Below, one piece after another: positions 14,889 through 37,776 of a stretch of DNA of 43,808 bases. The stretch is from an uncultured Thermodesulfobacteriota bacterium (GTDB lineage: Bacteria; Desulfobacterota; B13-G15; RBG-16-54-18). Under the pieces are notes generated by a model, which ran no database searches, was not told where the DNA came from, and saw nothing but the letters and a program-made list of their open reading frames with translations. Location of the stretch: NCBI GenBank assembly GCA_964459135.1, contig CAYWLI010000004.1, positions 2,436-46,243 on the forward strand, written 5' to 3'. Within the stretch, counting starts at the first letter, position 1. The number at the start of each line of letters is the position of its first letter. Both the position numbers and the translations under genes were made by a program.

Positions 14889-15248
14889 ATGATGCTCAAC
14901 ACATACATACCCGTCCTCTTTTTAATCGGACTTGCCGTTTTTTTTGCCGTTTTTGCGGTTGGAGTATCACGTTTCTTAGGTCCTCGCAGGGTTAATCCGG
15001 TCAAGGCCGCACCGTATGAATGCGGGATGATCACCCTCGGCCCTACGCATCAGGCCATCCCCATCAAGTACTATATTATCGCCATGCTCTTCCTCGTCTT
15101 CGACCTGGAGGTAGTCTTTCTCTACCCCTGGGCCGTGGTCTTCCGTAAACTCGGGATATTTGGTTTTATTGAGATGATGATCTTCGTCTTTATACTTTTA
15201 GTCGGTTTTATCTATGTCTGGAAAAAAGGAGCCCTCGAATGGGAATAG
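14889..15248 (+). CDS. nuoA: NADH-quinone oxidoreductase subunit A
   Basis: 119 aa with three hydrophobic segments, a PYECG motif, and first position in the nuo cluster. Purine-rich AGAGGGGAGG lies upstream; ATG 14892 is an equally possible start. Confidence 0.9.
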
Positions 15249-15754
15249 AGGTCAAGTTAGGTGACAATATCGTCACGGCCTCCCTCAGCAAGCTGGTCAA
15301 CTGGGCGCGCAAAAACTCCATCTGGCCGGTGACCTTCGGCCTGGCCTGCTGCGCCCTGGAGATGATAGTCACCAGTTCGGCGCATTATGACATCGCCCGG
15401 TTCGGCGCTGAGGTATTCAGACCTTCCCCCAGGCAGGCGGACCTCATGATCGTGTCGGGGACGGTCACCAAGAAGATGGCCCCCATGATCAAGAGGATCT
15501 ACGAGCAGATGCCCGAACCCAAATGGGTGATTGCCTATGGTGCCTGCGCCTGCTCCGGCGGGATTTTTCAGACCTACAATGTGGTGCAAGGGATAGACCA
15601 GTTTATTCCGGTGGATGTCTACGTGCCGGGGTGTCCCCCCAGGCCGGAGGCCCTCTTGACGGCCTTGATCAAACTACAAGAGAAGATTTCTCAGGAGAGC
15701 CTCCTGGACCGGAAGGATGAGATTCGCCCCCTGCGGGCTGAGGAGATTCGCTAG
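15239..15754 (+). CDS. nuoB: NADH-quinone oxidoreductase subunit B (N2 cluster subunit)
   Basis: The [17 protein letters not shown] and VPGCPP strings are the NuoB/PSST Cys motifs. The gene overlaps nuoA by 10 nt. Confidence 0.95.
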
Positions 15755-15769
15755 GAAGAAGATTCTATT

Positions 15770-17461
15770 ATGTGGGATACGAAGGTCGCCCCCCAGAAGC
15801 TGAAAAAACAATTCCCCGACGCGGTCATTGACACCCGTTCCTTTCGAGGGGAGGAGACCGTCGTAGTCAAGCATGACGCCATCCTCCCTATCTGCCAGTT
15901 CCTCGCCACAGATCCTGCGCTCTCCTTCGATTTTCTCACCGACATCTGCGGCGTCGATTATCCGGATCGTGAGAAGCGTTTTGAGGTAGTCTACCACCTT
16001 TATTCGATAAGACGGAAAACACGGCTGCGCCTCAAGACCGCAGTGGGCGAGGGGGAGGCCCTCTCCACGGTTGAGTCGGTCTGGAAGGCGGCCACGTGGT
16101 TTGAGCGTGAGGCCTACGATATGCTTGGCCTTACCTTTGAGGGGCACCATGACCTGCGTCGGATCTTGACCTGGGATGGGTACGAGGGGCATCCCCTGCG
16201 CAAGGACTTCCCGCTCAGGGGGGAGGATTTCGAGCACTACGAAGTACCGGCGGAGCCGTCCGATGCCTTCTCCACCATGCCTGAGGAGGTTGAGGGCGAG
16301 CGGTATATGACCCTCAACATGGGTCCCCAGCACCCGGCCACCCATGGGGTGTTGCGTCTGGTTCTGAAGCTTGATGGCGAGGTAATCGTCGACGCAGTCC
16401 CCTACATAGGGCACCTGCACCGGGGGGTGGAGAAGTTGGCCGAGGGGATGACCTATACCCAGGCCATTACCCTCACCGACCGTCTGGACTACACTGCCGG
16501 CATCTGCAATAACCTCTCCTATGTCCTGACTGTTGAAAAGCTCTTGGGTATCGAGGTCCCCAAGCGGGCCCAGTACATCCGGGTTATGATGGTCGAGCTC
16601 CAGCGCATCGCGGCGCACCTGTTGTGGCTCGGCACCCATGCCCTGGACATTGGGGCCATGACCGTCCTCTTTTATTGCTTGCGTGATCGGGAGACGATCA
16701 TCGACATCCTGGAACATTTCACCGGGGCCAGGTTGACCCCCAGCTTCCTACGCGTCGGGGGGCTGGCTGCTGATCTGCCCGAGGGTATCGAGCAGAAGAT
16801 TACGGCCTTTCTCGATGATTTTCCCCGGCTGATAAAAGAATATGAGACCCTCCTCACCAAGAACATCATCTGGTTGAAGCGGACCAAAGGGGTGGGGGTC
16901 ATCAGCCCTAAAGATGCCATCAATTGGGGTCTCACCGGTCCGGTCATCAGGGGATCGGGGGTTAAGTGGGACATCCGCAAGGCCATCCCCTATTCGAGCT
17001 ATGATGACTTTACATTTGAGATCCCCACCGGGGAGAACGGAGACGTCTACGACCGGTACCTCGTGCGGCTGGAGGAGATGCGGCAGTCCGCCCGGATTGT
17101 GCGTCAGGCCTTACAGAAACTTCCCAAGGGGAGGATACTCGCGCGTGATCCCCGGCTGACTCCACCGGCGAAGACGGAGGTGGGGCAGGAGATCCATGCC
17201 CTGATCCGCCACTTCAAGCTCTTTGCCGAGGGGGTATCGCCACCCCCCGGTGAGGTCTACTGCAGCATCGAGAATCCCAAGGGTGAACTGGGATGGTATC
17301 TGGTGAGCGATGGGAGCAACCGGCCCTATCGCTATCGGATCCACACCCCGAGCTTTGTAAACGTAGCGGCCCTGCCGGAGATGATTAAGGGGCACCTGGT
17401 GGCCGACGTGGTGGCTGTCATCGGAAGTATCGATATCGTCTTAGGGGAGATAGATAGGTAG
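15770..17461 (+). CDS. nuoCD: Fused NADH-quinone oxidoreductase subunits C and D
   Basis: 563 aa. The N-terminal third is NuoC-like (WFEREAYDMLGLTFEGHHDLRRIL). The rest is NuoD-like (MTLNMGPQHPATHGVLRL, HRGVEKL, C-terminal IDIVLGEIDR). Confidence 0.93.
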   Translation: MWDTKVAPQKLKKQFPDAVIDTRSFRGEETVVVKHDAILPICQFLATDPALSFDFLTDICGVDYPDREKRFEVVYHLYSIRRKTRLRLKTAVGEGEALSTVESVWKAATWFEREAYDMLGLTFEGHHDLRRILTWDGYEGHPLRKDFPLRGEDFEHYEVPAEPSDAFSTMPEEVEGERYMTLNMGPQHPATHGVLRLVLKLDGEVIVDAVPYIGHLHRGVEKLAEGMTYTQAITLTDRLDYTAGICNNLSYVLTVEKLLGIEVPKRAQYIRVMMVELQRIAAHLLWLGTHALDIGAMTVLFYCLRDRETIIDILEHFTGARLTPSFLRVGGLAADLPEGIEQKITAFLDDFPRLIKEYETLLTKNIIWLKRTKGVGVISPKDAINWGLTGPVIRGSGVKWDIRKAIPYSSYDDFTFEIPTGENGDVYDRYLVRLEEMRQSARIVRQALQKLPKGRILARDPRLTPPAKTEVGQEIHALIRHFKLFAEGVSPPPGEVYCSIENPKGELGWYLVSDGSNRPYRYRIHTPSFVNVAALPEMIKGHLVADVVAVIGSIDIVLGEIDR

Positions 17462-17473
17462 TAAATAAACTAC

Positions 17474-17492
17474 CTCGCAGCGCTGCTGCGAG
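17474..17492 (+). other. Perfect 8-bp GC-rich hairpin (CTCGCAGC-GCT-GCTGCGAG) 12 nt after the nuoCD stop
   Basis: Read directly from the sequence. It is followed by AUGUUUAG, which is only a 3-U tract, so it is not a classical terminator. It may be an RNA-stability or processing element or a partial attenuator. Confidence 0.5.
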
Positions 17493-17736
17493 ATGTTTAG
17501 GGGTCAAGGATGCAAGGGTTCAATCCCACCCAGCAATGTAAATTTAAGGAAGCGGGATGCCGCTGGCGGCAGGGTTCGAGTGAAAAGGATTCAAATGATC
17601 AGAGAATCACCGAGGGGATGTTTAGTGACCCTCTGGCCACTAGGACCCTCGACCCCTGGGACCCTATGCACAGCGACTCTTTTGGAGTTGAGCAGGAAAC
17701 TCCTAGATATTGTATGTTGAGGTAAGAGTGAAAGAC

Positions 17737-19686
17737 ATGATTTTCAGTTATTGGGGAGGAAAGCTGAGCGACAACCGGCGCAAGACGGGAAAGAAGGCCG
17801 CTAAGGCGGCACGGTTGAAACTGCCCCCCGAATTTAAACCCGGCGTTCCGATCAAGGCCTTTGTCGGGTGGGACGGTTTTGCCATCCGGGACAAGAGCGC
17901 CAGCGTGGTAGATATGTGCCGGGCCTATATGGAGGCGGTGCAAGCGGTTTCATGTGGCAAGTGCTTTCCCTGTCGGGTCGGCACGAAGGTGATCAGCGAA
18001 ATCCTCGAGCGGATCACCGAGGGTAAGGGGAGGATGAAGGATATAAACCAGATGGTTGTGCTCGGACGCTCCATCGTGGAGGGATCCAAGTGTCAGATCG
18101 GGCAGACCGGGCCCATTCCTTTGCTGGCGGCCTTAGAGCACTATCGCGGTGAATTCGAAGCAGTCATTAAAAACAAAAAAAAGGTCCCGCGCGGGGAGTA
18201 CCAGGTAAAGCTCACCGCCCCCTGTATAAATGCCTGTCCGGCACACTTGGACATCCCCACCTACATAGAACGAATCGCCGAGGGAAACTTCCTCGACTCC
18301 CTGCGGGTCATCAGGGAACGGACCTGTCTGCCGGGGATTCTCGGGCGGGTCTGCGTCCGCCCCTGTGAGTCCAATTGTCGCAGGCTCAATGTGGATGAGC
18401 CCCTCGACATCAGGCACCTCAAGCGGTTTGTGGCCGATTACGAGTTGGAAAAGAAAAGAACGCCAGTTCTTCCGACCTCTCAGTGCAAGAAAGACAAAAA
18501 AGTGGCAATCATCGGGGCTGGCCCGGCAGGGCTGTCCTGTGCCTACTACCTGGCCCTCAAAGGGTATGGGGTTACCGTCTTTGAGCGGATGGATGAGCCT
18601 GGGGGGATGGCCGCTGTGGGGATACCCGACTATAGGCTCCCGCGCACCATCCTGCGCCGGGAGGCTGACATCATCACCTCATTAGGGGTCGAGATCAGAT
18701 ATAACACCGAGGTGGGCAAAGACATCACCATCAGCGCACTGAAGCAGGATTATGACGCCATCTTCGTCGGCGTGGGGGCACAATTGTCCATGCCCATGCG
18801 GGTCGAGGGAGAGGATGTAGGATATAAAGGCTTCATCCCCGGGGTGCAGTACCTCTACAGCATCAATAAGGGGGAGGATCCCTATCCTCAGGGGCAACGG
18901 GTGGTTGTGGTCGGAGGCGGCAATGTTGCCATCGATTGCGTACGCTCTTCCTTCCGGATAGAAAAGAAAGACGTCAACCTCCTCTACCGGCGTACCCGCA
19001 AAGAGATGCCTGCCGATGAAGTGGAGATCCACGACGCCGAGGAAGAAGAGGTGCGGTTCGAATACCTCTGCGCCCCCACCAAGATCATCGAACAGAAAGG
19101 GAAGGTGGTGGGGGTGGAGTGCATCAAGATGGAGCTCGGGGAGCCTGACGAATCAGGCAGACGCAGGCCGGTCCCTGTCAAGGGATCGGAGTTCGTAGTT
19201 GATACCGATATCCTGATCCCGGCCATCGGGCAGCGGGTCGATCTCTCCTTTATAGAGGGACAAGACGCGATCGAGGCCACCAAATGGTCCACCGTATCCT
19301 CGGACGATGCAACCTTTCAGACATCTCAACCTGGTATCTTCTCCGCTGGTGACTGTGTGACTGGTCCCGATGTCCTGGTGCGGGCGGCGGGGAATGCCCG
19401 TTTGTCCGCGGAGATGATCGACCGCTACCTTACTGGTGAAAAGGTGGAAATGAGCGATGACGAACGATTAGAGCGCTTAATGGCCGAGATCGGGGTCTAC
19501 GATTCCGAGGAGACAATCGGGATCATCCCCGGGGGGAAGCGGGAGCAGTTGGGGATGCTTCCACCGGAGAGCCGAAAGTGGACCTTTGAGGAAGTAGAGA
19601 AGGGATTTCCCACCGATGCCGCCATGCGGGAGGCCGCTCGGTGTCTGCGGTGTTACCGCATCGGGATCCTGGCGATAGGGAAGTAA
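17737..19686 (+). CDS. GltD/SfrB-like NAD(P)H-dependent iron-sulfur flavoprotein with an N-terminal NuoF-type [4Fe-4S] (N3) domain, occupying the nuoE/nuoF position
   Basis: The ORF is open from TTG 17710, with an in-frame TAG at 17704-17706. GTG 17728 (GAGG 5 nt upstream) and ATG 17737 are the plausible starts. Motifs: SCGKCFPCRVGT...SKCQIGQTG (NuoF C-terminal cluster); CINACPAHLDIPTYI and GRVCVRPCESNCRR (GltD Fe-S region); KKVAIIGAGPAGLSCAYYL, VVVVGGGNVAIDC and FSAGDCVTG (two dinucleotide folds). Confidence 0.85.
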   Translation: MIFSYWGGKLSDNRRKTGKKAAKAARLKLPPEFKPGVPIKAFVGWDGFAIRDKSASVVDMCRAYMEAVQAVSCGKCFPCRVGTKVISEILERITEGKGRMKDINQMVVLGRSIVEGSKCQIGQTGPIPLLAALEHYRGEFEAVIKNKKKVPRGEYQVKLTAPCINACPAHLDIPTYIERIAEGNFLDSLRVIRERTCLPGILGRVCVRPCESNCRRLNVDEPLDIRHLKRFVADYELEKKRTPVLPTSQCKKDKKVAIIGAGPAGLSCAYYLALKGYGVTVFERMDEPGGMAAVGIPDYRLPRTILRREADIITSLGVEIRYNTEVGKDITISALKQDYDAIFVGVGAQLSMPMRVEGEDVGYKGFIPGVQYLYSINKGEDPYPQGQRVVVVGGGNVAIDCVRSSFRIEKKDVNLLYRRTRKEMPADEVEIHDAEEEEVRFEYLCAPTKIIEQKGKVVGVECIKMELGEPDESGRRRPVPVKGSEFVVDTDILIPAIGQRVDLSFIEGQDAIEATKWSTVSSDDATFQTSQPGIFSAGDCVTGPDVLVRAAGNARLSAEMIDRYLTGEKVEMSDDERLERLMAEIGVYDSEETIGIIPGGKREQLGMLPPESRKWTFEEVEKGFPTDAAMREAARCLRCYRIGILAIGK

Positions 19687-19687
19687 G

Positions 19688-22261
19688 ATGGGTGATGCGA
19701 CGGTCCAGATAACCATTGACGGCACAGAGCTCCAGGCGGAGGCCGACAAGACCATCCTGGAAGTGGCTCGGGCACACGGGATCTATATCCCTACCCTCTG
19801 TTATCATCCCCGGCTGCTTCCTATCGGGTCATGCCGTCTCTGCGTGGTGGAGATCGAGGGGGCGGACAGGCCCATGACTGCCTGCACCACCTTGGTGCAG
19901 GACGGGATTGTGGTCCGCACCCAGACGGAGCGGTTGAACCGCATCAGGCGTGACGCCCTCAAGCTTATCTTGACCTATCACCCCTTGGACTGCCCGCAGT
20001 GTGATGCCGCCGGCGCGTGTGAGTTGCAGAATCTCGTCTTTGCGTTCGGCATCGACCAGCAGGAGTATCGGGCAACGCGATCCACCCAGGGCATGAGGGA
20101 GTTTGCCACCCCCCTCATCAGACAGTGGGGAGATCGCTGCGTCATGTGCCTGCGGTGCATCAGGGCCGATCATGAGATCGTCCGAGCCCATGCCATCGAC
20201 CTCGTGGGTACGGGGAACGAGGCCCGGGTCGAGGTAATAAACCCCGATGCCTGTATCTCCTGCGGGGAGTGCCTGCGGGTCTGCCCGGTGGGGGCCCTGA
20301 CCGAACGGGTCAGCCGCATCAAGGCCCGCCCCTGGCAGTCTCAGAAGGTTCTTACCACCTGTCACTACTGTTCGCTGGGCTGCCAGTTGGAGCTCATTGT
20401 TTTCGAAAACAAGGTCATTGGGGTAACGACCCAAGAGGATGTAGGGGCCAACAGGGGTAACCTCTGCCAGCGAGGGATCTTTGGGTACGACTTCCTTCAC
20501 CACCCCGAGCGGATCACCGTCCCCATGATCAAGGAGGCCGGTCAGTGGAAGGAGGTCCCCTGGGATGAGGCCCTCTCCTATGTCGCGGCCATGGTCAATA
20601 AGGTCATCCTATCCAGTGGCCCTGAGGCCGTGGGGGGATTGATCTCCCCGCGCTGTACCAACGAAGAGGCTTACCTCTTTCAGCGGTTCATGCGGGAGGT
20701 GGTGGGGACGAACAATATCGATAGCACCGGTCGGCTCTGTCTGGAGCCGTACCGTCTGGCCATACAAGAAATAGTGGGGAGGGATTATCTCCCCTTCACC
20801 CTTGATGATATCGTCCACAGCGACTGCATCGTTGTGGCCGGCGGGGATCTGGATGCGAACAATCATATTATCGCGGCCAACCGGGTGCGGGAGGCCCTCT
20901 GGAAAACCGGGGCGCGCCTCATCGTCCTTCATCCCCGACGGGGGAGATTGGCCGAAGAGGCGGATTGCTGGTTCCCCCTGCGCCCGGGGGATGAGGGGAT
21001 TGTGGCCCTGGGATTGATCCATCTGCTCTTGAAGAAGAAAGAGAGCTGGGGACCGGCGGTTGATAAGATCTCGGGGTTCACAGAGCTCAAAGAAGCGGCT
21101 CAGAAGTTCACCCCCGCCTTCGTGGCGAAGGAGATCGGTGTCTCCCAAGACCTCCTCAAGGAGGCAGCGGATTACCTGGCCCAGGCGCACAGACCGGCCT
21201 TTGTTTGTTCCCCGCCGCTGGGGCAGGGGCCAGATGGGGTAGACCAGATCAAGGCGTTGGTCAATCTGGCGCTGCTGTGTGGTGCCTTTCCCGACGGCGG
21301 AGGGTTTCACTTTGTGGGACCTCAGAGCAACATGGTTGGTGCCGTTGAGATGGGGGGTGTACCGGGACTTCTTCCCGGATACCGCCCTGCCGAAGGAACG
21401 GGGCTTTCCGCCGTGGAGCAGTTTCAGGCGGCGGCCAAAGGAAAGCTCAAGGCCCTGTTTGTCGTGGGGGAGAACCCCCTCATCACCCTCCCCAGGGCCC
21501 TGGTGGAGGAGGGGCTCAAGGCCCTGGAATTGCTCGTGGTCCAGGATATGTTCCTTTCGGAGACAGCCGAGAAGGCCCATGTGTTCCTGCCGACCCTCTC
21601 TTTTGCGGAGTCGGACGGCACGATGACCAACTGCGAGGGGCGGGTCCAGCGGGTGCGCAGGGGCTTGGAGCCCCCTGACGACGTGCGGTGGACAGGTGAG
21701 ATCTTATCGGATGTGACCTCTTACATGGGAAAAGAGATGCCTGCCGTATCTCCGGTAGGGGTCTTTGATGAGATGGTACAGGCCAATCCTCTTTATAAAG
21801 GAATGATATTTGAGCCGTCTGATGCCCAATGGCGTGCAGGCGAGGGGGGGGAGCTCTTAGAAAAGGCTGCATTCAGGATCGTCAAGGCCGAACGGCAAAC
21901 AGATGAGAAGAATTATCCCTTTACCCTCTCCATAGAAGGCCTCTTCTCAAGCCATCTCATCGGCTCCGGCAATCAGAAGAGGGCCCAGGGGTTGGCGCAG
22001 GTTTCCCGTTCCTATCTAGAGATGAATGCCGCAGAGGCCAAGCAAATAGGCGTTGGTGACGGCGACCGCGTGCGGGTCCTCACCCCCTGGGGTGCGGTGG
22101 AGGTAGCGGTAAGGGGTTCAGAGGAGATGCGGAAGGGCGTCCTGTGCCTTTCGCTCTCCTTTTATGACGCGGATTACGCCCGACTGGTGGGTCCGCAGCT
22201 GGACCCCCGTTCCCTGGTGCCCTCTTACGGGTGGATACCTGCCAGGGTAGAAAAGGCGTAG
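19688..22261 (+). CDS. nuoG: NuoG-like / SfrA-like 857-aa subunit (2Fe-2S plus 4Fe-4S N-terminal domain fused to a molybdopterin-oxidoreductase-fold domain with a degenerate active site)
   Basis: IPTLCYHPRLLPIGSCRLCVVE (2Fe-2S), HPLDCPQCDAAGACELQ (His-Cys3 N5-type), CVMCLRCIRA, CISCGECLRVCPVGAL and CHYCSLGCQLE (cluster of the MopB domain). At the site where FdhA has CARL-U-HS, this protein has TGRL-C-LE and lacks GSGAMTNS. The ATG lies 1 nt after the upstream stop. Confidence 0.85.
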   Translation: MGDATVQITIDGTELQAEADKTILEVARAHGIYIPTLCYHPRLLPIGSCRLCVVEIEGADRPMTACTTLVQDGIVVRTQTERLNRIRRDALKLILTYHPLDCPQCDAAGACELQNLVFAFGIDQQEYRATRSTQGMREFATPLIRQWGDRCVMCLRCIRADHEIVRAHAIDLVGTGNEARVEVINPDACISCGECLRVCPVGALTERVSRIKARPWQSQKVLTTCHYCSLGCQLELIVFENKVIGVTTQEDVGANRGNLCQRGIFGYDFLHHPERITVPMIKEAGQWKEVPWDEALSYVAAMVNKVILSSGPEAVGGLISPRCTNEEAYLFQRFMREVVGTNNIDSTGRLCLEPYRLAIQEIVGRDYLPFTLDDIVHSDCIVVAGGDLDANNHIIAANRVREALWKTGARLIVLHPRRGRLAEEADCWFPLRPGDEGIVALGLIHLLLKKKESWGPAVDKISGFTELKEAAQKFTPAFVAKEIGVSQDLLKEAADYLAQAHRPAFVCSPPLGQGPDGVDQIKALVNLALLCGAFPDGGGFHFVGPQSNMVGAVEMGGVPGLLPGYRPAEGTGLSAVEQFQAAAKGKLKALFVVGENPLITLPRALVEEGLKALELLVVQDMFLSETAEKAHVFLPTLSFAESDGTMTNCEGRVQRVRRGLEPPDDVRWTGEILSDVTSYMGKEMPAVSPVGVFDEMVQANPLYKGMIFEPSDAQWRAGEGGELLEKAAFRIVKAERQTDEKNYPFTLSIEGLFSSHLIGSGNQKRAQGLAQVSRSYLEMNAAEAKQIGVGDGDRVRVLTPWGAVEVAVRGSEEMRKGVLCLSLSFYDADYARLVGPQLDPRSLVPSYGWIPARVEKA

Positions 22262-22265
22262 GGAA

Positions 22266-23282
22266 GTGCGGATGGAACTGATTTATTTCTTGATCGAGAA
22301 CATAGTAAAGGTAGTAATGGTCTTCGCCGTCCTGATGGGCGTGGTGGCCTACCTCACCCTGGCCGAGCGCAAGATCTTGGGGCGCATCCAGGTGCGCTAC
22401 GGGCCCAATCGGGTGGGCCCCTTCGGCCTGTTTCAGCCCATCGCCGATGGGATCAAGGCCTTCTTCAAGGAGGATGTGGTCCCGGCCCGGGCTGACCAGA
22501 CCCTCTTTGTCATCGCCCCCATGATCAGTATCACGGCGGCCATCTCACTCTTTGCCGTGATCCCCTTCGGCGAATACATTGACTTCTTGGGTAGGCGGAT
22601 ATCCTTCACCATTGCTAATCTGGACATCGGGTTGCTCTATGTCTTTGCCATCGCCTCGTTGGGGGAATACGGGGTCGTCCTCGGCGGCTGGTCCAGCTAT
22701 AACAAGTATGGCCTCATGGGTGCCCTGCGGGCGGCGGCCCAGATGATCAGCTACGAGATTGCCCTGGCCCTTTCAGTGATGGGGGTCTTGATGATCTCGG
22801 GGACCCTCAATCTGGTCGAGATCGTCCAGCAGCAGGCCGGATGGCACTGGAATGCCTTCTATCATTTTCAATTTTTCCCGTTTATTTTTTATATCGTCTG
22901 TGCCCTTGCCGAGATCAACCGGACGCCCTTCGATATGCCCGAGGCGGAGGCGGAGCTGGCCTGCGGCTTTAACATCGAGTACAGCAGCATGAAATTCGCC
23001 CTCTTTTTTATGGCGGAGTACGCCCATCTGGTGGCGGTCTGCGCCATCGCCACCACCCTGTTTCTCGGGGGGTGGGACGGTCCCTTCAACCTGCCGCCTG
23101 CCTTGTCGTGGATCTGGTTTGCAGCGAAGACCGGCATCCTCGTGTACTTTTTTATCTGGCAGAGAGGGACCTTCCCGCGGCTGCGGTATGACCAGATCAT
23201 GCGGTTCGGGTGGAAGTTCCTGCTGCCCTTGACCCTCGCCAATATATTTGGTACGGGGTTGTATATGGTCTTAACAGGATAA
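22266..23282 (+). CDS. nuoH: NADH-quinone oxidoreductase subunit H
   Basis: LAERKILGRIQVRYGPNRVGPFGLFQPIADGIK is the NuoH/ND1 signature. GTG 22266 or ATG 22272 is the start. Confidence 0.94.
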   Translation: MRMELIYFLIENIVKVVMVFAVLMGVVAYLTLAERKILGRIQVRYGPNRVGPFGLFQPIADGIKAFFKEDVVPARADQTLFVIAPMISITAAISLFAVIPFGEYIDFLGRRISFTIANLDIGLLYVFAIASLGEYGVVLGGWSSYNKYGLMGALRAAAQMISYEIALALSVMGVLMISGTLNLVEIVQQQAGWHWNAFYHFQFFPFIFYIVCALAEINRTPFDMPEAEAELACGFNIEYSSMKFALFFMAEYAHLVAVCAIATTLFLGGWDGPFNLPPALSWIWFAAKTGILVYFFIWQRGTFPRLRYDQIMRFGWKFLLPLTLANIFGTGLYMVLTG

Positions 23283-23289
23283 GAGAGTA

Positions 23290-23766
23290 ATGGTTATCTC
23301 ACTGTTAAAAGGAATATGGTGGTTCATAAAAGGAATAGGGCTGCTCGTGGCGAGTGTCTTTGCCCTGTTAAAGGGATTGAGGCTGACCTTCAGCAAGTTC
23401 TTTTCCCGTCCGGTGACCATCCGGTACCCCGAGCATAAGCGCGAGGTGGCCCCGCGCTGGCGGGGAATCCATTACTTTGAACGTGACGAAAAGGGTGATA
23501 CCTGCTGTGTGGCCTGTGGGCTCTGTGTTGCCATCTGCCCCTCTCAGTGCATCCGCTTGGTGGCGGTTGAGTTGGATGGGGGGGGGCGGTATCCAGAGCA
23601 ATATGAGATCAATACCGTCAGGTGTATCTACTGCGGTATGTGCGCTGAAGCCTGCCCGGTGAATGCCATCAAGCTGGGGAGGAACTACGAGTTTGTCGAT
23701 TACCGGCGGGAAGACCTTGTCTTGGACAAAGGGAGACTCCTAGCCAATGCACCGAAGGAGGGATAG
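23290..23766 (+). CDS. nuoI: NADH-quinone oxidoreductase subunit I (2x[4Fe-4S])
   Basis: Two CxxCxxCxxxCP motifs (CVACGLCVAICP, CIYCGMCAEACP). 158 aa. Confidence 0.94.
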   Translation: MVISLLKGIWWFIKGIGLLVASVFALLKGLRLTFSKFFSRPVTIRYPEHKREVAPRWRGIHYFERDEKGDTCCVACGLCVAICPSQCIRLVAVELDGGGRYPEQYEINTVRCIYCGMCAEACPVNAIKLGRNYEFVDYRREDLVLDKGRLLANAPKEG

Positions 23767-24294
23767 GTGATAGCGGGTAGCGTCTTTTATTGGATCGTTT
23801 TTATCGGGACCGCCCTGACCGCCATCTTTGCAGCGGTGATGGTGATTACCCGGCGCAGCCCCATCCACTCGGCCATGTTCTTGATCCTCAACTTTATCTG
23901 CATCGCCGTCCTCTACCTGCTGTTAAACTCCCAATTTATCGCCATTGTCCAGGTGATGATCTATGCCGGTGCCATCATGATGTTGGTGATCTTCGTTATC
24001 ATGCTGCTGAATGTGGAGGAAGAGGAACAGCAAAAAATGCACGCTTCACCCGCCAAGGTAATAGGGGTGGTATTGGTTCTTATTCTCTTTGCGCAACTCA
24101 TCTATGGGGTTGGTGTTCAGGTCTTGCCCGGGGAGTGGGGTGAGTTTACCCCTGAGCGCATGGCCCGGATAGGTGATATCAAGGCAATAGCAGGTCTCCT
24201 CTTTACAAAGTTCCTCTTCCCCTTTGAGATCGCCTCTATCCTCCTCTTGGTGGGGATCATCGGGGCGGTGATCTTGAGCAAAAAAGAGAGGTAA
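23767..24294 (+). CDS. nuoJ: NADH-quinone oxidoreductase subunit J
   Basis: 175-aa hydrophobic protein between nuoI and nuoK. The GTG start abuts the nuoI stop. Confidence 0.85.
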
Positions 24295-24299
24295 CTGAG

Positions 24300-24611
24300 A
24301 TGTTTTCCGGTGTGACACCCATATACTTTTTGTTTGTGAGCGCCGTGATCTTCGCCATCGGTGCGGTAGGGGTCTTGATCAGGAGGAACGCCATCGTCAT
24401 CTTCATGTGCATCGAGATGATGCTGAGCGCTGTTAACCTCACCCTCATCACCGCCTCCCACTATCTGCAATCCCTGGATGGTGTCCTGATGGTTTTCTTC
24501 GTGATGACGGTGGCGGCGGCTGAGGCGGCCGTCGGTCTGGCCATCTTCGTCCTCCTCTTTCGCGGGCGGGGGACCATTAAGGTGGATGGTATAAACCTCT
24601 TGAAGTGGTGA
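24300..24611 (+). CDS. nuoK: NADH-quinone oxidoreductase subunit K
   Basis: 103 aa with three TM segments, membrane-embedded Glu residues ([18 protein letters not shown]), and the expected position. Confidence 0.88.
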
Positions 24612-24627
24612 CGGGAGAACGTACGGT

Positions 24628-26598
24628 ATGATCGAATTAGTGTGGTTGATACCCCTCTTTCCGGCCATCGGGTTTCTCTTTAACGGCCTGATCGGGCGGT
24701 GGTTCAATCTCGATAAACGAATCGTCAGCTGGGTGGCATGTTTTGCCTTGGGGCTGTCTTTTCTCTTTTCCATCCTGATCTTCTTCGCCCTCCTTAAGCT
24801 CTCTCCCGAAGCGAGGGCTGTGGTGCCCGACAGGGTCCTCTTCGACTGGATCGTGTCCGGGGGGCTCAAGACGGTCGTTGGGTACAAGGTCGATCCCCTC
24901 TCCATCATCATGGCTTTGGTGGTCAGCGGCGTGAGCTTTTTCATTCACATCTATTCCGTCGGGTACATGCACGATGACCCGGGGTATACCCGATACTTTG
25001 CCTTCCTCAACCTCTTTGTCTTCATGATGCTCACCCTGGTCTTGGCCAACAATTTCCTCCTTATGTTTGTCGGATGGGAGGGTGTGGGGCTCTGTTCGTA
25101 TCTCCTCATCGGTTTTTGGTTCGACCGGGATGCCCCTGCCAATGCAGGTAAAAAGGCCTTTGTGGTCAATAGGGTGGGGGATTTCGGCTTCCTGTTGGCC
25201 ATGTTCTTGATCTTTGCCCACCTCGGCACCCTGGAGTTCAACGGAGTTTTTGACGGAGCCCATTCCCTCGATATCGTCACCGTAACGCTCATCACCCTCC
25301 TGCTCTTTGTGGGGGCCGCAGGTAAGTCGGCCCAGATCCCCCTCTATGTATGGCTCCCCGATGCCATGGAGGGCCCCACCCCTGTCAGCTCGCTGATTCA
25401 TGCCGCCACTATGGTTACCTCGGGGGTGTATATGATCGCCCGGTGCAACATCCTGTATACCATGGCCCCTGTCTCCATGGCTACTGTGGCCATTGTCGGT
25501 GCCGCTACGGCCATCTTTGCCGCCTCCATGGGGCTGTTGCAGTTCGATATCAAGCGGGTGCTGGCCTACTCCACCATCAGCCAACTCGGCTACATGTTCC
25601 TCGCGGTCGGCGTAGGGGCCTTCAGCGCGGGGATCTTCCACCTCATGGCCCACGCCTTCTTTAAGGGGCTCCTCTTTCTGGGGGCTGGGAGTGTGATGCA
25701 CGCTATGAGTGGGGAGTTGGACATGAGGAACATGGGGGGAATCTGGAAGAAAACCCCCATTACCTTCTGGACCTTCTTGATAGCCACCCTGGCCATTGCG
25801 GGGATCCCCGGGTTCGCGGGGTTTTTCAGCAAGGATGAGATTCTCTGGCAGGCCTTCAGCAGCTCCCACGGCCACGTGTATCTTTGGTTAGTAGGTGCCG
25901 TTGCTGCGGGGATGACCGCCTTCTATATGTTCCGGCTTGTCTTCGTCACCTTCTTGGGGGGGTGCCGGGCCACAGATGAGGTAAAAAAACACATTCATGA
26001 ATCTCCCTCCATCATGACTGTTCCCCTTATTGTCTTGGCCGTACTCTCGGTCATAGGCGGGTATGTGGGGATACCCCACGTCCTGGGGGGAAGGAACATC
26101 TTCCACGAGTTTCTCGCCCCGGTCTTGGGTGGACACCCTGAAGGGACGGCGCACGCTGCCTTTTCCTTAGTCAAATCCGCCTTTGCGAGCGGTGGTGCAG
26201 CAGAGGGGAGTGGCATCAACATGGAACTCCTTCTCATGGGTGTTTCCGTGGCCATTGCCATCATCGGGATCGGCATTGCCTTTTATCTCTATATCCTGAA
26301 GCCAGAGGTCCCCAAGCGCTTGGGCGAGCGGTTGAAGATCCTTTATACGATCGTTTTCAACAAGTACTATGTTGATGAGATTTATGAGGCCTGTTTTGTC
26401 AAGAGCACCAAGAAGCTCGGCACCTTCTTCTGGCGGGAGTTCGATGACGGGGTCATCGATCGGAGTGTAAATCTGGTGGGCGGGTTGATGCTCTGGCTGG
26501 GGCGGGTCCTGCGCAGGATCCAAACAGGCCGTGTGCAGGGTTACGCACTGGGCATCATCCTGGGTGCCGTGATAATCATCATTTTCTTGATCAGGTGA
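24628..26598 (+). CDS. nuoL: NADH-quinone oxidoreductase subunit L
   Basis: 656-aa antiporter-like subunit with [15 protein letters not shown] and [21 protein letters not shown] strings and a long C-terminal extension. Confidence 0.93.
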
Positions 26599-26608
26599 GG
26601 AGTTGTGC

Positions 26609-28204
<1,596 letters not shown>

Positions 28205-28211
28205 GAGGGAG

Positions 28212-29678
28212 ATGGAGTTCTTTCAGGTTCAGTTTTCAACGTCAGATCTGCTGATAATTGCCCCGGAGGTGGTGCTGACCGGCTTCGCCCTGTTGATCTT
28301 GCTCATCAGCGCCTTTGTTCGTGGGGAGCGGAGGGGTTTCCTCGGCTATACCGCCCTTGTGGGGGTGATCGGTGCCTTAGTCTCCCTCTATTGGGGTATC
28401 GGCAGGGAGGCGAGTGCCTTCAGCGGCATGGTGAACCTCGATCCTTTCTCCTTTTTCTTTAAGGTCATGATAGCGATCATCGCCCTGTTGACCATCTTGT
28501 CCTCCCTGGCATATGCCAAGCGGGAGGGGATAGATTTCGGCGAATACTACGTCTTGGTCTTATTCGCCACCGTGGGTATGATGTTGATGGTCTCAGGGGC
28601 CAATCTTCTCATTATTTTTCTGGGGCTCGAGGTAATGTCCATCTCCATCTATGTCTTGGCTGGCATCATGCGGGATGATGCGAAATCGGTTGAGGCGGCA
28701 TTTAAGTACTTTTTATTGGGTGCTTTCGCCTCGACCTTTCTCCTGTACGGCATCGCCCTGATCTATGCCTCCACCGGCACCCTCGATCTGGGTGGGATCG
28801 GTCGGGTCCTGGCAGAACGGACGTGGATCAGCGGCCTCCCTATTCTCATCACCGGGCTCGCCCTGCTCATCGTGGGGTTTGGATTCAAGATCGCCCTGGT
28901 CCCCTTTCATATGTGGACCCCTGACGTCTATGAGGGCGCCCCAACCTCCATCACCGCCTTTATGGCCACGGGGGTCAAGGCCGCAGGTTTCGCCGCCTTT
29001 GTACGGGTCTTCCTCTATGCCTTGCCATCACTGCAGCCCTACTGGACGGAGATCATGTGGATCTTGGCAGTGGCCACCATGACGGTGGGGAACATCATCG
29101 CACTCTCTCAAAGCAATATCAAGAGAATGCTCGCCTACTCCAGCATCGCCCATGCGGGCTATATCCTGGTCGCCTTTGTGGCCGGCAACGCACTGGGTCA
29201 ATCGAGCATCCTCTTTTATCTTCTGGCCTATGTCTTTATGAACATCGGGGCCTTTACCGTGGTGATCCTGCTGGGGAAGAAGGGGGAGGAGAATACCCTG
29301 ATCAGCGATTATGCGGGACTCGGGTTGCAGCACCCCCTCCTGGCGGTTGCTATGGCCATCTTCATGTTCTCCCTGGCAGGGGTGCCCCCGATGGCCGGTT
29401 TTATGGCTAAGTTCTATGTCTTCAGCGCAGCGGTGAAGGCCGGCTATTATTGGCTGGCAGTCATCGGTGTCTTGAACAGCGCTGTTGCCGCCTATTATTA
29501 CCTCAGGGTGCTGATATACATGTACTTCCGCGAACCGGAGAGGGAGCTGACTATTGGAGGCTTCTCACCCGCTGCTGTCCTGGCCATCATTATATCGGTA
29601 TGGGGGGTATTGCATATTGGTATCCTGCCCTCGGCATTTCTGGCCTTGGCCCAGCGGTCCATCCAGTTTTTGTTGTGA
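28212..29678 (+). CDS. nuoN: NADH-quinone oxidoreductase subunit N
   Basis: Antiporter-like subunit (VPFHMWTPDVYEGAPT). It is the last nuo gene. Confidence 0.92.
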   Translation: MEFFQVQFSTSDLLIIAPEVVLTGFALLILLISAFVRGERRGFLGYTALVGVIGALVSLYWGIGREASAFSGMVNLDPFSFFFKVMIAIIALLTILSSLAYAKREGIDFGEYYVLVLFATVGMMLMVSGANLLIIFLGLEVMSISIYVLAGIMRDDAKSVEAAFKYFLLGAFASTFLLYGIALIYASTGTLDLGGIGRVLAERTWISGLPILITGLALLIVGFGFKIALVPFHMWTPDVYEGAPTSITAFMATGVKAAGFAAFVRVFLYALPSLQPYWTEIMWILAVATMTVGNIIALSQSNIKRMLAYSSIAHAGYILVAFVAGNALGQSSILFYLLAYVFMNIGAFTVVILLGKKGEENTLISDYAGLGLQHPLLAVAMAIFMFSLAGVPPMAGFMAKFYVFSAAVKAGYYWLAVIGVLNSAVAAYYYLRVLIYMYFREPERELTIGGFSPAAVLAIIISVWGVLHIGILPSAFLALAQRSIQFLL

Positions 29679-29797: not shown

Positions 29798-30154
29798 ATG
29801 CAACTTTGGGAAATTAAGGGCATATTAGAAGCTGAAGTGCTTTGGGAGCCTGTCGATCTCCAACTTGAGATCGAGACGGCGGAAGCCGCCGATCTGATGA
29901 GCGATGTCCTGACCCAAAGTATTGGCGGGGAGCTTTTAGTCACGGGTTTGATCAACTCCCATGTCATCCGGACAGCGGAGATGGTCGATATCAAGGCTAT
30001 CACCTTCATCCATGGCAAGAAGCCAGATGAGAAGACTATTGCACTGGCCAAGCAAAAGGGTATCCCTTTATTGACCACAAAACTCTTTCTGTTTGAGGCT
30101 TGCGCCAGGCTGGCCATGCGAGGACTGACCGGCAGTTCAGGGACCATCTGGTGA
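29798..30154 (+). CDS. DRTGG domain protein (copy 1)
   Basis: 118 aa. ADLMSDVL..GELLVTGL..HVIRTAEMVDIKAITFIHGKKPDEKTIALAKQKGIPLLTT matches my memory of the DRTGG domain. It is paralogous to 31954..32298. Confidence 0.7.
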   Translation: MQLWEIKGILEAEVLWEPVDLQLEIETAEAADLMSDVLTQSIGGELLVTGLINSHVIRTAEMVDIKAITFIHGKKPDEKTIALAKQKGIPLLTTKLFLFEACARLAMRGLTGSSGTIW

Positions 30155-30164
30155 GCACGCATCG

Positions 30165-30611
30165 ATGGCAGAGCGCGCACTCGAATGGGAGTATGAGATT
30201 GAGGGGAAGGACTTCAGGAATGCCGGGAAGGTCTCGAGCAAGGTCAAGGAGATCATGAAGGAGCTCGGCTTCGATCCGGATTTCGTGCGGGGGGTGGCCA
30301 TTGCCTCCTATGAGGCGGAGATGAATGTGGTCTGCCATGCGGAGAAAGGGACGCTGCAATTCGCCATCCTCCCCGAGGGGCTGAAGATTGTGGTAAAAGA
30401 TAGAGGCCCTGGCATACCCGATATCAATTTGGCCATGCAGGAGGGATACTCCACCGCATCTTTGGAGATCAGGGAAATGGGGTTTGGTGCGGGGATGGGG
30501 CTTCCTAATATGAAAAAGAACACCGATGAGTTGAACATCGTCTCCACGGTGGGGGAGGGGACGGTGGTGGAGATGCTCATCAGGTCCCCCCGCTTCAGAC
30601 AAGGATCATGA
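30165..30611 (+). CDS. RsbW/SpoIIAB-like GHKL ATPase (anti-sigma-factor-type Ser/Thr protein kinase)
   Basis: 148 aa. N-box-like EAEMNVVCHA, G1 DRGPGIPD and G2 GFGAGMGLPN are present. There is no His-phosphotransfer domain. Confidence 0.75.
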   Translation: MAERALEWEYEIEGKDFRNAGKVSSKVKEIMKELGFDPDFVRGVAIASYEAEMNVVCHAEKGTLQFAILPEGLKIVVKDRGPGIPDINLAMQEGYSTASLEIREMGFGAGMGLPNMKKNTDELNIVSTVGEGTVVEMLIRSPRFRQGS

Positions 30612-31957
30612 TGAAGCGATTGTATGGAATTATCTCCATCGATGAGGACAAATGCCAGGGGTGTGTCAACTGCATTATGTCCTGCCGCACCGAGGCCATC
30701 AGGATTTTTGAGGGAAAGGCCAGAATCATTACCAATCGATGCATCTATTGTGGCAAGTGCTTTCGCGATTGCCCTGAGCATGCCATAACCTCCCGGACCC
30801 ATGGCCTGGAAGACCTCAAGCAGTATAAGTATACCATCGTTATTCCCAGTTCCACCATCTATTCGCAGTTCCCCGGGGAGGATGCCCCCAACAGAATTCT
30901 CTGCGCGCTCAAGGCCCTCGGTTTTGACGATGTCTATGAGGAGGCGGTAGGGGCGGAGGAGGCAAGTATCGCCACCCAGGAGTACCTCAAGGAGTATCGA
31001 GGCCCGTATCCCCTCATCTCCTCCCTCTGCCCAGCTATCATCAGATTGATCCAGATCAGGTTCCCCAATTTTGTCGATCAGATCAACCCCATTGAACTCC
31101 CCGCTGAGATTGTGGCCAAAGGTATCAGGAAGCAAAAGGCCAAGGAACGGGGGGTGCAGGGAAAGGAGTTGGGGATCTTCTACTTGGTACCCTGCCCGGC
31201 CAAGATGGTGGCAGTGGCAAAGACGGAGACAAAGGAACGGTCATATATCGATGGAGTCATATCCATCTCCGACATATACGGAGAGTTGTTAACAGCCTTG
31301 AGGGAGGTGAGCGAAACGGAGGATCTACAGAAGGCCAGCGGTGCGGGGATCGGATGGGCGGTGAAGGGGGGGGAGATTAGGGAGCTGGAGCCACGACGGT
31401 GGCTGCGAGGTGACAAGGAGAGTATTGTGGTTGACGGGATCAAGAACGTCATCAATGTCCTTGACGAGATAGAGAACGGCAAGCTGCGCAACGTAGAGTT
31501 CGTCGAGGCCAGGGCCTGCCCCGAGGGGTGCGTTGGAGGGGCCTTGACAGTGGGTGACCGCTATGTGTCGAGGGGAAGGATTCGGAAGCTGATGCTCAGG
31601 AATAAGAAGGAATCGATTGTAAACCGGGAGGAGGTAGTAAAGCTTTTCAAGGAAGGATATTACTTCTTTAAGAAGGGGTTGAAGCCGAAACCCTTTGCCA
31701 GCCGCCTGGATCCCGATCCTCTCAAGGCCGTGGAAAAGATGAAGTTGCGGGATGAGATCCACGCCTCTCTCCCCGGTTTGGATTGTGGGGCCTGCGGTGT
31801 CCCCAACTGCCGTGCCTTGGCCGATGACGTCGTGCAGGGGAGGGCGGAGATAACCGACTGCATCTTCAAGTGGCGGGAAGGGGTCAAGGATCTAGCCCGA
31901 GAGGTCATGCAGTGGGCGGAGAAACGGCCTCATTCCCTGCCTAAGAGGGGGAAATGA
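30608..31957 (+). CDS. HydS-like [FeFe]-hydrogenase homolog of the putative sensory type (2x[4Fe-4S] N-domain, H-domain, C-terminal extra Fe-S domain)
   Basis: CQGCVNCIMSC and CIYCGKCFRDCP (ferredoxin-like). H-cluster motif counterparts are SSLCP (L1, canonical TSCCP), VPCPAKM (L2, canonical MPCxxK) and EARACPEGCVGG (L3, canonical ExMACxxGCxxGG). C-terminal LPGLDCGACGVPNCRALA...C. ATGA overlaps at both ends. Confidence 0.8.
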   Translation: MMKRLYGIISIDEDKCQGCVNCIMSCRTEAIRIFEGKARIITNRCIYCGKCFRDCPEHAITSRTHGLEDLKQYKYTIVIPSSTIYSQFPGEDAPNRILCALKALGFDDVYEEAVGAEEASIATQEYLKEYRGPYPLISSLCPAIIRLIQIRFPNFVDQINPIELPAEIVAKGIRKQKAKERGVQGKELGIFYLVPCPAKMVAVAKTETKERSYIDGVISISDIYGELLTALREVSETEDLQKASGAGIGWAVKGGEIRELEPRRWLRGDKESIVVDGIKNVINVLDEIENGKLRNVEFVEARACPEGCVGGALTVGDRYVSRGRIRKLMLRNKKESIVNREEVVKLFKEGYYFFKKGLKPKPFASRLDPDPLKAVEKMKLRDEIHASLPGLDCGACGVPNCRALADDVVQGRAEITDCIFKWREGVKDLAREVMQWAEKRPHSLPKRGK

Positions 31958-32298
31958 AACTTGTAAACGTTGTCGATGAACTTGCGCTCGCTGTCAAGAC
32001 AGCCCAAGGGGGGCTCGACAGGGAGGTACAAGGGGGATATGCGAGCGACCTGCTCAGCGATGTCATGGCCAACAGCCAGGAGGGGGATATCTGGGTGACC
32101 ATCCAGGGGCACCCGAACATCGTGGCGGTGGCTACCTTGCGGGACCTGGCAGGGGTCATCCTGGCCAACGGCAGACAGCCCGATGCGGAGACCCTCCAAC
32201 GGGCCGAGGAGGAGGGCATTCCCATTCTATGCACCCCCTTACCGACCTATGAGGTTGTGGGCAGGCTCTATAGCCTGGGCATTCATGGCCAAGGGTAA
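31954..32298 (+). CDS. DRTGG domain protein (copy 2)
   Basis: 114 aa. SDLLSDVM..GDIWVTIQGHPNIVAVATLRDLAGVILANGRQPDAETLQRAEEEGIPILCT aligns by eye with copy 1. Confidence 0.7.
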   Translation: MKLVNVVDELALAVKTAQGGLDREVQGGYASDLLSDVMANSQEGDIWVTIQGHPNIVAVATLRDLAGVILANGRQPDAETLQRAEEEGIPILCTPLPTYEVVGRLYSLGIHGQG

Positions 32299-33023
32299 TG
32301 GTGAGTGTCTATGCCTCAGATCTCCATGTCCACACCTGTCTTTCTCCGTGTGCGGACGAAGAGATGTCGCCGAGCAACATCGTGCACACGGCACGTGAGG
32401 CATCAGTGGACATCATCGCCGTTACCGATCACAATTCGGGCAAGAACGCCCGGGCGGTAAAGGAGGCGGCAGTTGAGCTTCCGCTCACCGTCATTGCAGG
32501 GATGGAGGTTCAGAGCAGAGAGGAGGTCCACCTCCTTTGTCTTTTTGGGAGCGTGGAGATCCTTGAAGAGTGGGATGCCTTTATCTATGAACACCTCCCC
32601 GATGTGCGCAACGACCCTGAGGTCTTCGGATATCAACCGATCGTTGATAAAGAGGGGTATGTTTTGCGCTTTGAGGAAAAATTATTGATCAACTCCCTCG
32701 ATCTCTCTCTGGAGGAGGTTATAAAGGGCGTTGCGGATAGAGATGGGATCTGTATTCCTGCCCATGTGGATCGGGAGGCCTTCAGTATTATCGGGCAACT
32801 GGGGTATATACCCCCGGATCTACCCGTAGCCGCCGTGGAGATCACAGGAGACCAGAGAGACATGGTGCCAGAAGGATATGAAGTGGTGACCGCCTCTGAC
32901 GCCCATTTCTTGCGTGCAATCGGGACCAAGAGAACTCTCTTTCTACTGGAGGCCCCTACGCTTGAGGAGATTCGCCGAGGTCTCAGGAGAGAGGGGGGAC
33001 GACGCATAACAGAGCTTTCATGA
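32298..33023 (+). CDS. PHP-family metal-dependent phosphoesterase
   Basis: 241 aa. DLHVHTCLSPCAD, IIAVTDHNS, GMEV and IPAHVD form the PHP His/Asp/Glu metal-ligand pattern. The start overlaps the upstream stop (TAATG). Confidence 0.78.
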   Translation: MVSVYASDLHVHTCLSPCADEEMSPSNIVHTAREASVDIIAVTDHNSGKNARAVKEAAVELPLTVIAGMEVQSREEVHLLCLFGSVEILEEWDAFIYEHLPDVRNDPEVFGYQPIVDKEGYVLRFEEKLLINSLDLSLEEVIKGVADRDGICIPAHVDREAFSIIGQLGYIPPDLPVAAVEITGDQRDMVPEGYEVVTASDAHFLRAIGTKRTLFLLEAPTLEEIRRGLRREGGRRITELS

Positions 33024-33029
33024 TTCCGT

Positions 33030-34305: not shown

Positions 34306-34335
34306 GCCGTCGCCTATTCATGCAAGGAGGGGGCA

Positions 34336-34710: not shown

Positions 34711-34740
34711 CTAGCATAGGAAAAGGGAGGAAGTAGTCGC

Positions 34741-37700: not shown

Positions 37701-37776
37701 GGTGGAGTTGGGTTATCCCGAAGAGGAGGCCCTCAAAGAATCAATGCGGTGTCTTCGCTGTGACATGGAACTCTAA
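34741..37776 (+). CDS. NuoF/HydB-like FMN/NAD(H) subunit fused to a GltD-like FAD/NAD(P)H iron-sulfur module (1011 aa)
   Basis: N-terminal Trx-like 2Fe-2S (LVCGGTGCH...CNGFCAQGP). NuoF core ([42 protein letters not shown]...CGLGQTA). Then GltD-type [63 protein letters not shown] and FAGGDAVTG. Confidence 0.88.
   Translation: [1011 protein letters not shown]

Follow-up and report, generated by a model that had tools for sequence, protein, structure and literature searches.

A complex I operon of an uncultured Thermodesulfobacteriota bacterium in which a GltD-type flavoprotein and a formate dehydrogenase-like iron–sulfur subunit occupy the nuoE-nuoF-nuoG slot: a candidate NADP(H)-linked electron-input module

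In a stretch of 43,808 nucleotides (nt) from an uncultured Thermodesulfobacteriota bacterium (contig CAYWLI010000004.1), which is hereafter referred to as the window, the plus strand carries an operon for complex I (nuo genes) that extends from 14889 to 29678 and has the gene order nuoA-B-CD-X-G-H-I-J-K-L-M-N. This order had been proposed in an earlier note made from the sequence of the same DNA and is confirmed by strong Pfam matches for each of the genes. X designates a flavoprotein of 652 amino acids (aa; 17728–19686) in the slot of nuoE and nuoF, and G an 857-aa iron–sulfur (Fe-S) subunit (19688–22261) that resembles both NuoG and FdhA; these two proteins and their possible role in complex I are the subject of this report. 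While a spacer of 266 nt (17462–17727) lies between nuoCD and X, the genes after X follow each other with the near-zero distances that had been noticed before, i.e., 1 nt between X and G, 4 nt between G and nuoH, and 0–16 nt at all downstream junctions.

According to Pfam, all eleven core subunits of complex I (A, B, C, D, H, I, J, K, L, M and N) are encoded together, with C and D being fused. Upstream of X, these are nuoA (14889–15248; Oxidored_q4, E 2.7e-38), nuoB (15239–15754; Oxidored_q6), which carries the N2 cluster and has a CCALE motif together with the C...CP ligands, and the fused nuoCD (15770–17461; Complex1_30kDa and Complex1_49kDa), which has QHPATHG and RLDY as motifs of the quinone site. 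Downstream of G, the set is completed by nuoH (22266–23282; NADHdh, E 3e-122), nuoI (23290–23766) with two CxxCxxCxxxCP motifs, nuoJ (23767–24294; Oxidored_q3), nuoK (24300–24611; Oxidored_q2), nuoL (24628–26598; Proton_antipo_N, Proton_antipo_M and Proton_antipo_C), nuoM (26603–28204; Proton_antipo_M) and nuoN (28212–29678; Proton_antipo_M). The residues of the quinone module are intact, comprising CCxxE...C...CP in NuoB, the His and Tyr residues of NuoD, and both CxxCxxCxxxCP motifs of NuoI, and motif inspection of the NuoCD C-terminus revealed no NiFe cysteines. As judged from their sequences, the quinone module and the membrane arm are canonical, and the core looks like that of a working quinone-reducing, ion-translocating complex I.

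No gene of the operon matches, in Pfam, the canonical domains of the electron-input module (N-module), that is PF01512 for the flavin mononucleotide (FMN)- and nicotinamide adenine dinucleotide (NADH)-binding part of NuoF, and PF01257 for NuoE. A tblastn search of the window with the FMN part of a NuoF-like paralog and with a NuoE-like protein returned nothing beyond a separate gene cluster at 33799–37776, which bears out the earlier statement that the operon is devoid of nuoE and nuoF and rules out that NuoE or an FMN domain is concealed in another part of the window. Scans of the window against Rfam and for tRNA genes were empty.

The longest possible reading frame of X starts with TTG at 17710, and the in-frame TAG at 17704–17706 that had been reported upstream of it is present. 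The probable start is GTG at 17728, which is preceded by GAGG at a distance of 5 nt and yields the 652 aa that are the length of most homologues, in agreement with the about 650 aa estimated before; the residue numbers of the Pfam matches given here follow the 658-aa version counted from TTG 17710. X is composed of an N3-type [4Fe-4S] domain as known from the NuoF C-terminus (17911–18162; NADH_4Fe-4S, PF10589, aa 68–151, E 8.7e-24, model positions 1–84 of 85), a domain of the type of GltD and dihydropyrimidine dehydrogenase (DPD) for two [4Fe-4S] clusters (18217–18456; Fer4_20, PF14691, aa 170–249, E 1.2e-23), a flavin adenine dinucleotide (FAD) fold with an NAD(P)H fold (18496–19392; Pyr_redox_2, PF07992, aa 263–561, E 1.2e-26), and a conserved C-terminal extension (19393–19683) that ends with RCLRCY. 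The Cys pair of this extension is invariant across the family, including full-length NuoF-GltD fusions and a Sulfurimonas protein, both of which are described below. Complex1_51K, SLBB and 2Fe-2S_thioredx were not found in X by Pfam, so that the outcome is exactly the one that had been predicted (NADH_4Fe-4S, GltD-type Fer4 and Pyr_redox_2, with neither Complex1_51K nor SLBB). An FMN/NADH domain, which had been named as speaking against this reading of X, is not detected by Pfam, and the NuoF model (NCBIfam nuoF_fam, TIGR01959) aligns with X over its last 100 positions only (308–410 of 410; 61.6 bits versus a cut-off of 558.65). Neither does X qualify as a GltD, with scores for TIGR01317 and TIGR01318 under their cut-offs and no GltB-like partner gene. 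The peptide strings quoted in the earlier note were all located where it had placed them, VVDMCRAYMEAVQAVSCGKCFPCRVGT and SKCQIGQTG in X, and the strings assigned to the paralog, including SALCGLGQTA, in the paralog only.

Every nuo-linked relative of X conserves the N3 motif CxxCxxC...C, the GltD cysteines, GAGPAG (FAD), GGGNVA...YRR and RCLRCY; in StnC, GxGxxA has been taken as an indicator of NADP(H) (PMC7483475). In an AlphaFold2 monomer model of X (mean predicted local distance difference test score (pLDDT) 79, predicted template modelling score (pTM) 0.78), the helical bundle of the N3 domain and the GltD module are confidently placed, but residues 1–28 are not. The best matches of this model in the PDB, as retrieved with Foldseek, are the NADPH-binding modules of NfnABC, StnC, NfnI-L, GltD and DPD, and in sequence and fold searches of the PDB no solved chain was found that joins an N3 domain and a GltD module in the order of X. 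A longer relative of X is encoded in the window itself by the paralog at 34741–37776, which carries Complex1_51K (E 9e-48), SLBB and a thioredoxin-like [2Fe-2S] domain. Since X aligns end to end with residues 377–1007 of the paralog (its C-terminal 630 aa) at 39% identity, X is, by this alignment, a shortened NuoF-GltD fusion without the NuoE-like, FMN/NADH and SLBB parts.

The assignment of G is based on Pfam, on its similarity to FdsA and on a comparison of residues. Its Pfam domains are Fer2_4, NADH-G_4Fe-4S_3 and Fer4_Nqo3, which make up a NuoG-type N-terminus, and Molybdop_Fe4S4, Molybdopterin and Molydop_binding. The nearest solved relative over the full length is FdsA (6tg9_A; aligned aa 4–823, E 3e-123), while NuoG of Mycobacterium smegmatis and Escherichia coli align to the N-terminal 400–440 residues of G only (aa 8–404 for E. 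coli); the NuoG model TIGR01973 gives a score of 379.7 versus a cut-off of 470. The cysteines for clusters N1b, N5 and N4, for the second ferredoxin motif and for an N7-like site are conserved across the nuo-linked relatives. At the position of the catalytic pair of selenocysteine (Sec) or Cys with His, G has Cys-Leu, and Val replaces the catalytic Arg; elsewhere among the nuo-linked clades, the pair is T-H, S-S or A-A, and the Arg is changed to I, L or A. Because the Sec/Cys-His pair and the Arg are variable or lost while the cluster ligands are kept, G is best understood from its residues as a non-catalytic electron-transfer scaffold derived from formate dehydrogenase, and not as an active formate dehydrogenase. 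The earlier designation of G as NuoG-like, thus, holds for the Fe-S ligands, which are of the NuoG type, but G is not an ordinary NuoG, as it is FdhA-derived with its catalytic residues lost.

A further peculiarity of G concerns aa 148–165 (20129–20182), where the close clade has Asp at the position of the fourth cysteine of the first ferredoxin motif (CVMCLRCIRAD); FdhA and the nuo-linked relatives that are more distant have Cys at this position. Because the fourth Cys is replaced by Asp, the second cluster of the ferredoxin-like domain of G may be Asp-ligated or of the [3Fe-4S] type.

The synteny of nuoD, the gltD-like gene and nuoG, for which the earlier note had suggested a survey, was followed across other genomes, with one genome taken per species. 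This gave 14 loci with X relatives of 54–90% identity, 13 of them with readable flanks, and in all of these 13 loci nuo genes, X, G, and nuoH onward succeed each other up to the end of each contig. All originate from uncultured bins of Thermodesulfobacteriota, Syntrophobacterales or Syntrophaceae. Three more homologues, found by exact-sequence lookup, led to five contigs with the identical order, NuoC and NuoD being either fused or separate; altogether, the X-G pair occupies the slot between nuoD and nuoH in 18/18 close relatives with readable flanks. The arrangement is widespread and not unique to the window. Over the 13 loci, the identity of X to the window protein rises and falls with that of all other subunits, NuoCD and NuoH included (r 0.96–0.99), with G diverging faster. 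In a rough neighbour-joining tree, the truncated proteins (620–685 aa) form one clade that is sister to the full-length NuoF-GltD fusions, and within this clade, the nuo-linked X sequences of Desulfobacterota are monophyletic. This pattern fits one old recruitment event, after which the unit was inherited vertically.

Two further groups of relatives show the combination of N3 and GltD domains in other surroundings. A sister subfamily of X (47% identity; Smithellaceae and Syntrophales; loci L086–L090) was found in the same six-gene context in four of four lookups, namely the genes for POR gamma, delta, alpha and beta, followed by an N3+GltD protein of ~640 aa and by a 235-aa Fer2_4+Fer4 protein, which consists of a NuoG-type [2Fe-2S] domain and a ferredoxin domain, as in the NuoG N-terminus. 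The cluster looks like a 2-oxoacid oxidoreductase that is wired straight to NADP(H). The N3+GltD proteins of this subfamily, thus, habitually pair with a NuoG-N-terminal-like Fe-S protein, as would be expected if the N3 domain acted as a docking adaptor for NuoG-type partners, and the pairing fits such a role.

The second group is represented by Sulfurimonas xiamenensis (CP041166.1, 6832–22034; locus L091), in which nuoA-B-C-D is followed by a 73-aa PF16514 NuoX-like gene, a 677-aa N3+GltD protein, two tandem NuoG-like genes without recognisable molybdopterin domains, and nuoH onward. The 677-aa protein is 35% identical to X over the full length and has an N-terminal FSxWxG and a C-terminal RCxRCY in common with it; its N3 motif is degenerate (CGRCAPG), and it is placed on a different branch of the family tree. 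Going by these domain assignments, the N3+GltD type of flavoprotein fills the nuoF slot in two phyla. Taken together, the synteny in all 18 loci, the monophyly of X, its co-divergence with the Nuo subunits and this second occurrence in Sulfurimonas favour a recruitment of X-G as N-module over a mere embedding in the operon.

The 266-nt gap between nuoCD and X, a feature that had gone unmentioned in the earlier note, contains a perfect hairpin (17472–17494) and GGTTCAA/GGATTCAA-like repeats. It represents an insertion that also occurs at the loci L002 and L081/L082; L001, L003, L004 and L022 lack it, and their gap measures ~15 nt. The fold of the spacer is not unusual (z = -1.6), its open reading frames have no Pfam match, and the window contains no second copy of its sequence. 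That the spacer might conceal a small subunit or an RNA was considered and rejected on the grounds of the missing family match, the ordinary fold, the lack of further copies and the absence of the spacer from close relatives.

On this basis, we consider it rather probable that X-G serves as the input module for electrons in a variant of complex I by which NADP(H) and menaquinone are connected, possibly in a reversible manner. The operon would encode a 13-gene variant of the enzyme in which two subunits of the SfrB/SfrA type take the place of the module of NuoE, NuoF and NuoG, a likeness that had been pointed out previously and is supported by the domain make-up. In the proposed scheme, NADP(H) would react at the GltD-type FAD of X, from where electrons would pass via the two GltD-type [4Fe-4S] clusters to the N3-type [4Fe-4S] cluster of the same protein, which belongs to the domain that serves NuoF-like proteins for docking to NuoG-like partners, on to the N1b-, N4- and N5-type clusters of G, and further via the clusters of NuoI and the N2 cluster of NuoB to menaquinone in NuoCD/NuoH, with proton translocation by NuoL, M, N, H, A, J and K. 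In the forward direction, the enzyme would act as an NADPH:menaquinone oxidoreductase building up proton-motive force; in the reverse direction, proton-motive force would drive the reduction of NADP+ by menaquinol. The cofactor sites and their conservation are seen in the sequences; that X-G assembles on the core, which route the electrons take, the specificity for NADPH and the direction are what we infer from homology with Nfn-type enzymes, glutamate synthase/DPD, FdsABG and complex I itself.

Several observations weigh against this assignment. Eleven-subunit complexes without an N-module are common (PMC3144371), and since such cores function elsewhere without NuoG, the core has no need of X-G. 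The C-terminal half of G, like the protein over its full length, resembles soluble formate dehydrogenase alpha more than any NuoG of known structure, and the predicted preference of X for NADP(H) rather than NADH is read from motifs only. Unlike in some relatives, nuoCD and X are parted here by the hairpin-bearing spacer. SfrAB of Geobacter, moreover, is regarded as a putative NADPH dehydrogenase in its own right, soluble and encoded apart from nuo (PMC2825233; Kaufmann and Lovley 2001 and Coppi 2007, as rendered in papers citing them), and the sister subfamily of X resides in a clearly soluble setting with genes for 2-oxoacid:ferredoxin oxidoreductase. X-G might, hence, be a soluble SfrAB-like oxidoreductase transferring electrons between NADPH and an acceptor (ferredoxin or other), which is merely co-transcribed with nuo, while the 11-subunit core is fed by another donor, e.g., reduced ferredoxin. 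This we regard as unlikely, as X-G keeps the exact nuoE-F-G slot in each of the 18 loci and, be it independently or anciently, in Sulfurimonas, as nuo-linked X is monophyletic and co-diverges with the Nuo subunits, and as the spacers X-G and G-nuoH are near zero, the one between nuoCD and X being missing in close relatives.

A different possibility places X-G on complex I, but assigns to its GltD-type FAD a bifurcating or confurcating reaction as in NfnAB, by which NADP(H), quinone and ferredoxin would be coupled, for instance in the formation of NADPH and reduced ferredoxin from quinol at the expense of proton-motive force. The closest solved relatives of X are indeed the modules with which NfnABC, Stn and NfnI, all of them bifurcating enzymes, bind NADPH, bifurcating modules in nuo clusters have been predicted earlier (Nuo-Bfu, PMC9304861), and G keeps clusters beyond the NuoG chain at ferredoxin motif 2 and the N7-like site. 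However, no second electron path is encoded, with neither an NfnA-like [2Fe-2S]/FAD subunit nor an FMN-containing BfuB found in the operon by Pfam, and the GltD modules of glutamate synthase and DPD do not bifurcate. We, therefore, hold this reading to be quite improbable, and it is still more doubtful that a proton-pumping complex I carries the FAD of X as a site of bifurcation or confurcation with the whole module having been recruited, independently of canonical NuoEFG, from a soluble enzyme of the formate dehydrogenase type. Automatic annotation implies yet another function, according to which G would be an active formate dehydrogenase and the complex, or the X-G pair, would oxidise formate: X-type proteins are named "formate dehydrogenase (NADP+) beta subunit" in JGI, G reaches 417 bits with the formate dehydrogenase alpha model TIGR01591, and the clade of the window keeps Cys at the Sec/Cys position. 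The 417 bits, though, fall short of the 666 required for the family, Leu and Val stand in place of the catalytic His and Arg, other nuo-linked clades have Thr, Ser or Ala in place of the Cys, and a genuine Sec-containing FdhA 15 kb downstream, which is 38% identical to G, retains U-H and the Arg for comparison. This loss of catalytic residues excludes G as an active formate dehydrogenase, and formate oxidation by the complex or the pair appears extremely unlikely.

The system with which X-G can be compared most directly is SfrAB of Geobacter sulfurreducens, which is described as consisting of two subunits, a GltD-like beta subunit (FAD, NADPH, Fe-S) and an FdhA/NuoG-like alpha subunit, and has been linked to the NADPH/NADP balance (Kaufmann and Lovley 2001; Coppi et al. 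2007, both as far as cited elsewhere). The same architecture is found in X, with two [4Fe-4S] clusters and FAD and NADPH folds, and in G, which is FdhA/NuoG-like and not a formate dehydrogenase; the likeness is one of described architecture, and SfrAB differs in that it is described as soluble and is encoded away from nuo (PMC2825233). In Sulfurimonas, an N3-like+GltD protein likewise stands between nuoD and a NuoG-like gene of a complete nuo operon, but the lower identity, the degenerate N3 motif, the extra PF16514 gene and the presence of two NuoG-like genes set this system apart.

Replacement of the input module as such is known from complex I of Campylobacter jejuni and Helicobacter pylori, in which nuoE and nuoF are replaced in situ, a NuoG-like subunit is retained, and flavodoxin serves as a non-NADH donor (Weerakoon and Olson 2008, as cited elsewhere). 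Their replacement proteins are without a flavin or nicotinamide site, whereas X itself is a flavoprotein dehydrogenase. The F420H2 dehydrogenases Fpo and Fqo combine an 11-subunit core with a non-homologous flavoprotein input (FpoF) and a different hydride carrier; FpoF, however, is unrelated to GltD, and a NuoG-like subunit is not part of these enzymes. In NfnABC and StnABC (PDB 9bov, 9n5u and 8oh5), which provide the best sequence and fold matches for aa 155–640 of X, Fe-S chains of the NuoG-like and NuoF-like kind are connected to a GltD-type module for NADPH and FAD, but the GltD module is inserted in the NuoG-like subunit, a full FMN-containing NuoF-like subunit is present, and the enzymes are soluble and bifurcating. 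From the Bfu (HydABC-type bifurcating) family, the operon differs by the lack of an FMN-containing BfuB and of a BfuC/NuoE-like subunit (family definition in PMC9304861). With regard to FdsABG of Rhodobacter capsulatus (6tg9), G and FdsA carry the same set of Fe-S motifs, but G is without the catalytic His and Arg, X is without the FMN domain of FdsB, and a subunit of the FdsG/NuoE type is lacking. The full-length NuoF-GltD fusions, finally, differ from X in keeping the thioredoxin-like, FMN/NADH and SLBB domains and in pairing with genes for active formate dehydrogenase or [FeFe]-hydrogenase.

Full-text searches of the literature retrieved no description of the order nuoA-B-CD-[N3+GltD]-[FdhA-like]-H..N in Desulfobacterota; a preprint on Sulfurimonas denitrificans reportedly proposes, for Campylobacteria, a complex I of a non-canonical kind by which ferredoxin and NAD(P)H are reduced. 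The Sulfurimonas operon is already contained in public genomes of cultured strains. Given the analogues known, i.e., the Campylobacter enzyme with NuoE and NuoF replaced, Fpo with FpoF, the predicted Nuo-Bfu clusters and gltD-related genes in mbx-like operons, the system is not categorically new, while existing automatic names such as "formate dehydrogenase beta subunit" and "FAD-dependent oxidoreductase" conceal it. Alternative inputs into complex I comprise FpoF for F420H2, ferredoxin for NDH-1 and flavodoxin for the Campylobacter enzyme. If the proposed function of X-G is true, an NADP(H)-linked, proton-coupled quinone oxidoreductase, with a GltD-type FAD wired in via a retained N3 adaptor, would join these. 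This would alter the view of the balance between NADPH on the one side and the quinone pool and proton-motive force on the other, both for syntroph-like Desulfobacterota and, by extension, for chemoautotrophic Sulfurimonas, which need reverse electron flow to NADPH. It would also imply that the 11-subunit core has, independently and for a second time, acquired a diaphorase of the formate dehydrogenase type, much as has been proposed for the origin of the canonical N-module. As cultured Sulfurimonas strains possess a homologous operon, the idea is directly testable.

About 4 kb past nuoN, the window contains a second redox cluster (33799–40511), which comprises a NuoE-like gene (33799–34305), a gene for a 124-aa weak thioredoxin-like [2Fe-2S] protein (34336–34710), the 1011-aa NuoE-C/NuoF/GltD fusion that is the paralog of X (34741–37776), and FdhA. 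The FdhA gene has an in-frame TGA at 38871–38873 in the context L-U-H-S, with a GC-rich hairpin ~13 nt downstream, and the cluster probably encodes a formate dehydrogenase that contains selenocysteine and is linked to NAD(P)H or ferredoxin. The region between the nuo and formate dehydrogenase clusters (29798–33578) is occupied by regulator-like genes. DRTGG-domain and HATPase proteins are encoded twice each and a PHP-domain protein once, together with a 449-aa [FeFe]-hydrogenase-like protein that bears an additional Fe-S domain at its C-terminus, and the region resembles a sensory-hydrogenase signalling set.

Among the more distant homologues, full-length NuoF-GltD fusions (~1030–1070 aa) are located beside [FeFe]-hydrogenase-like genes at two loci (L016 and L017), and one such fusion (L048) is paired with an FdhA-like gene without the catalytic Cys. 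In other Thermodesulfobacteriota bins (L057, L060, L068, L071 and L072), GltD-only homologues without N3 are encoded just upstream of nuoB-, nuoD-, nuoH- and nuoI-like genes, and these loci recall the gltD-containing mbx-like operons (PMC4758237).

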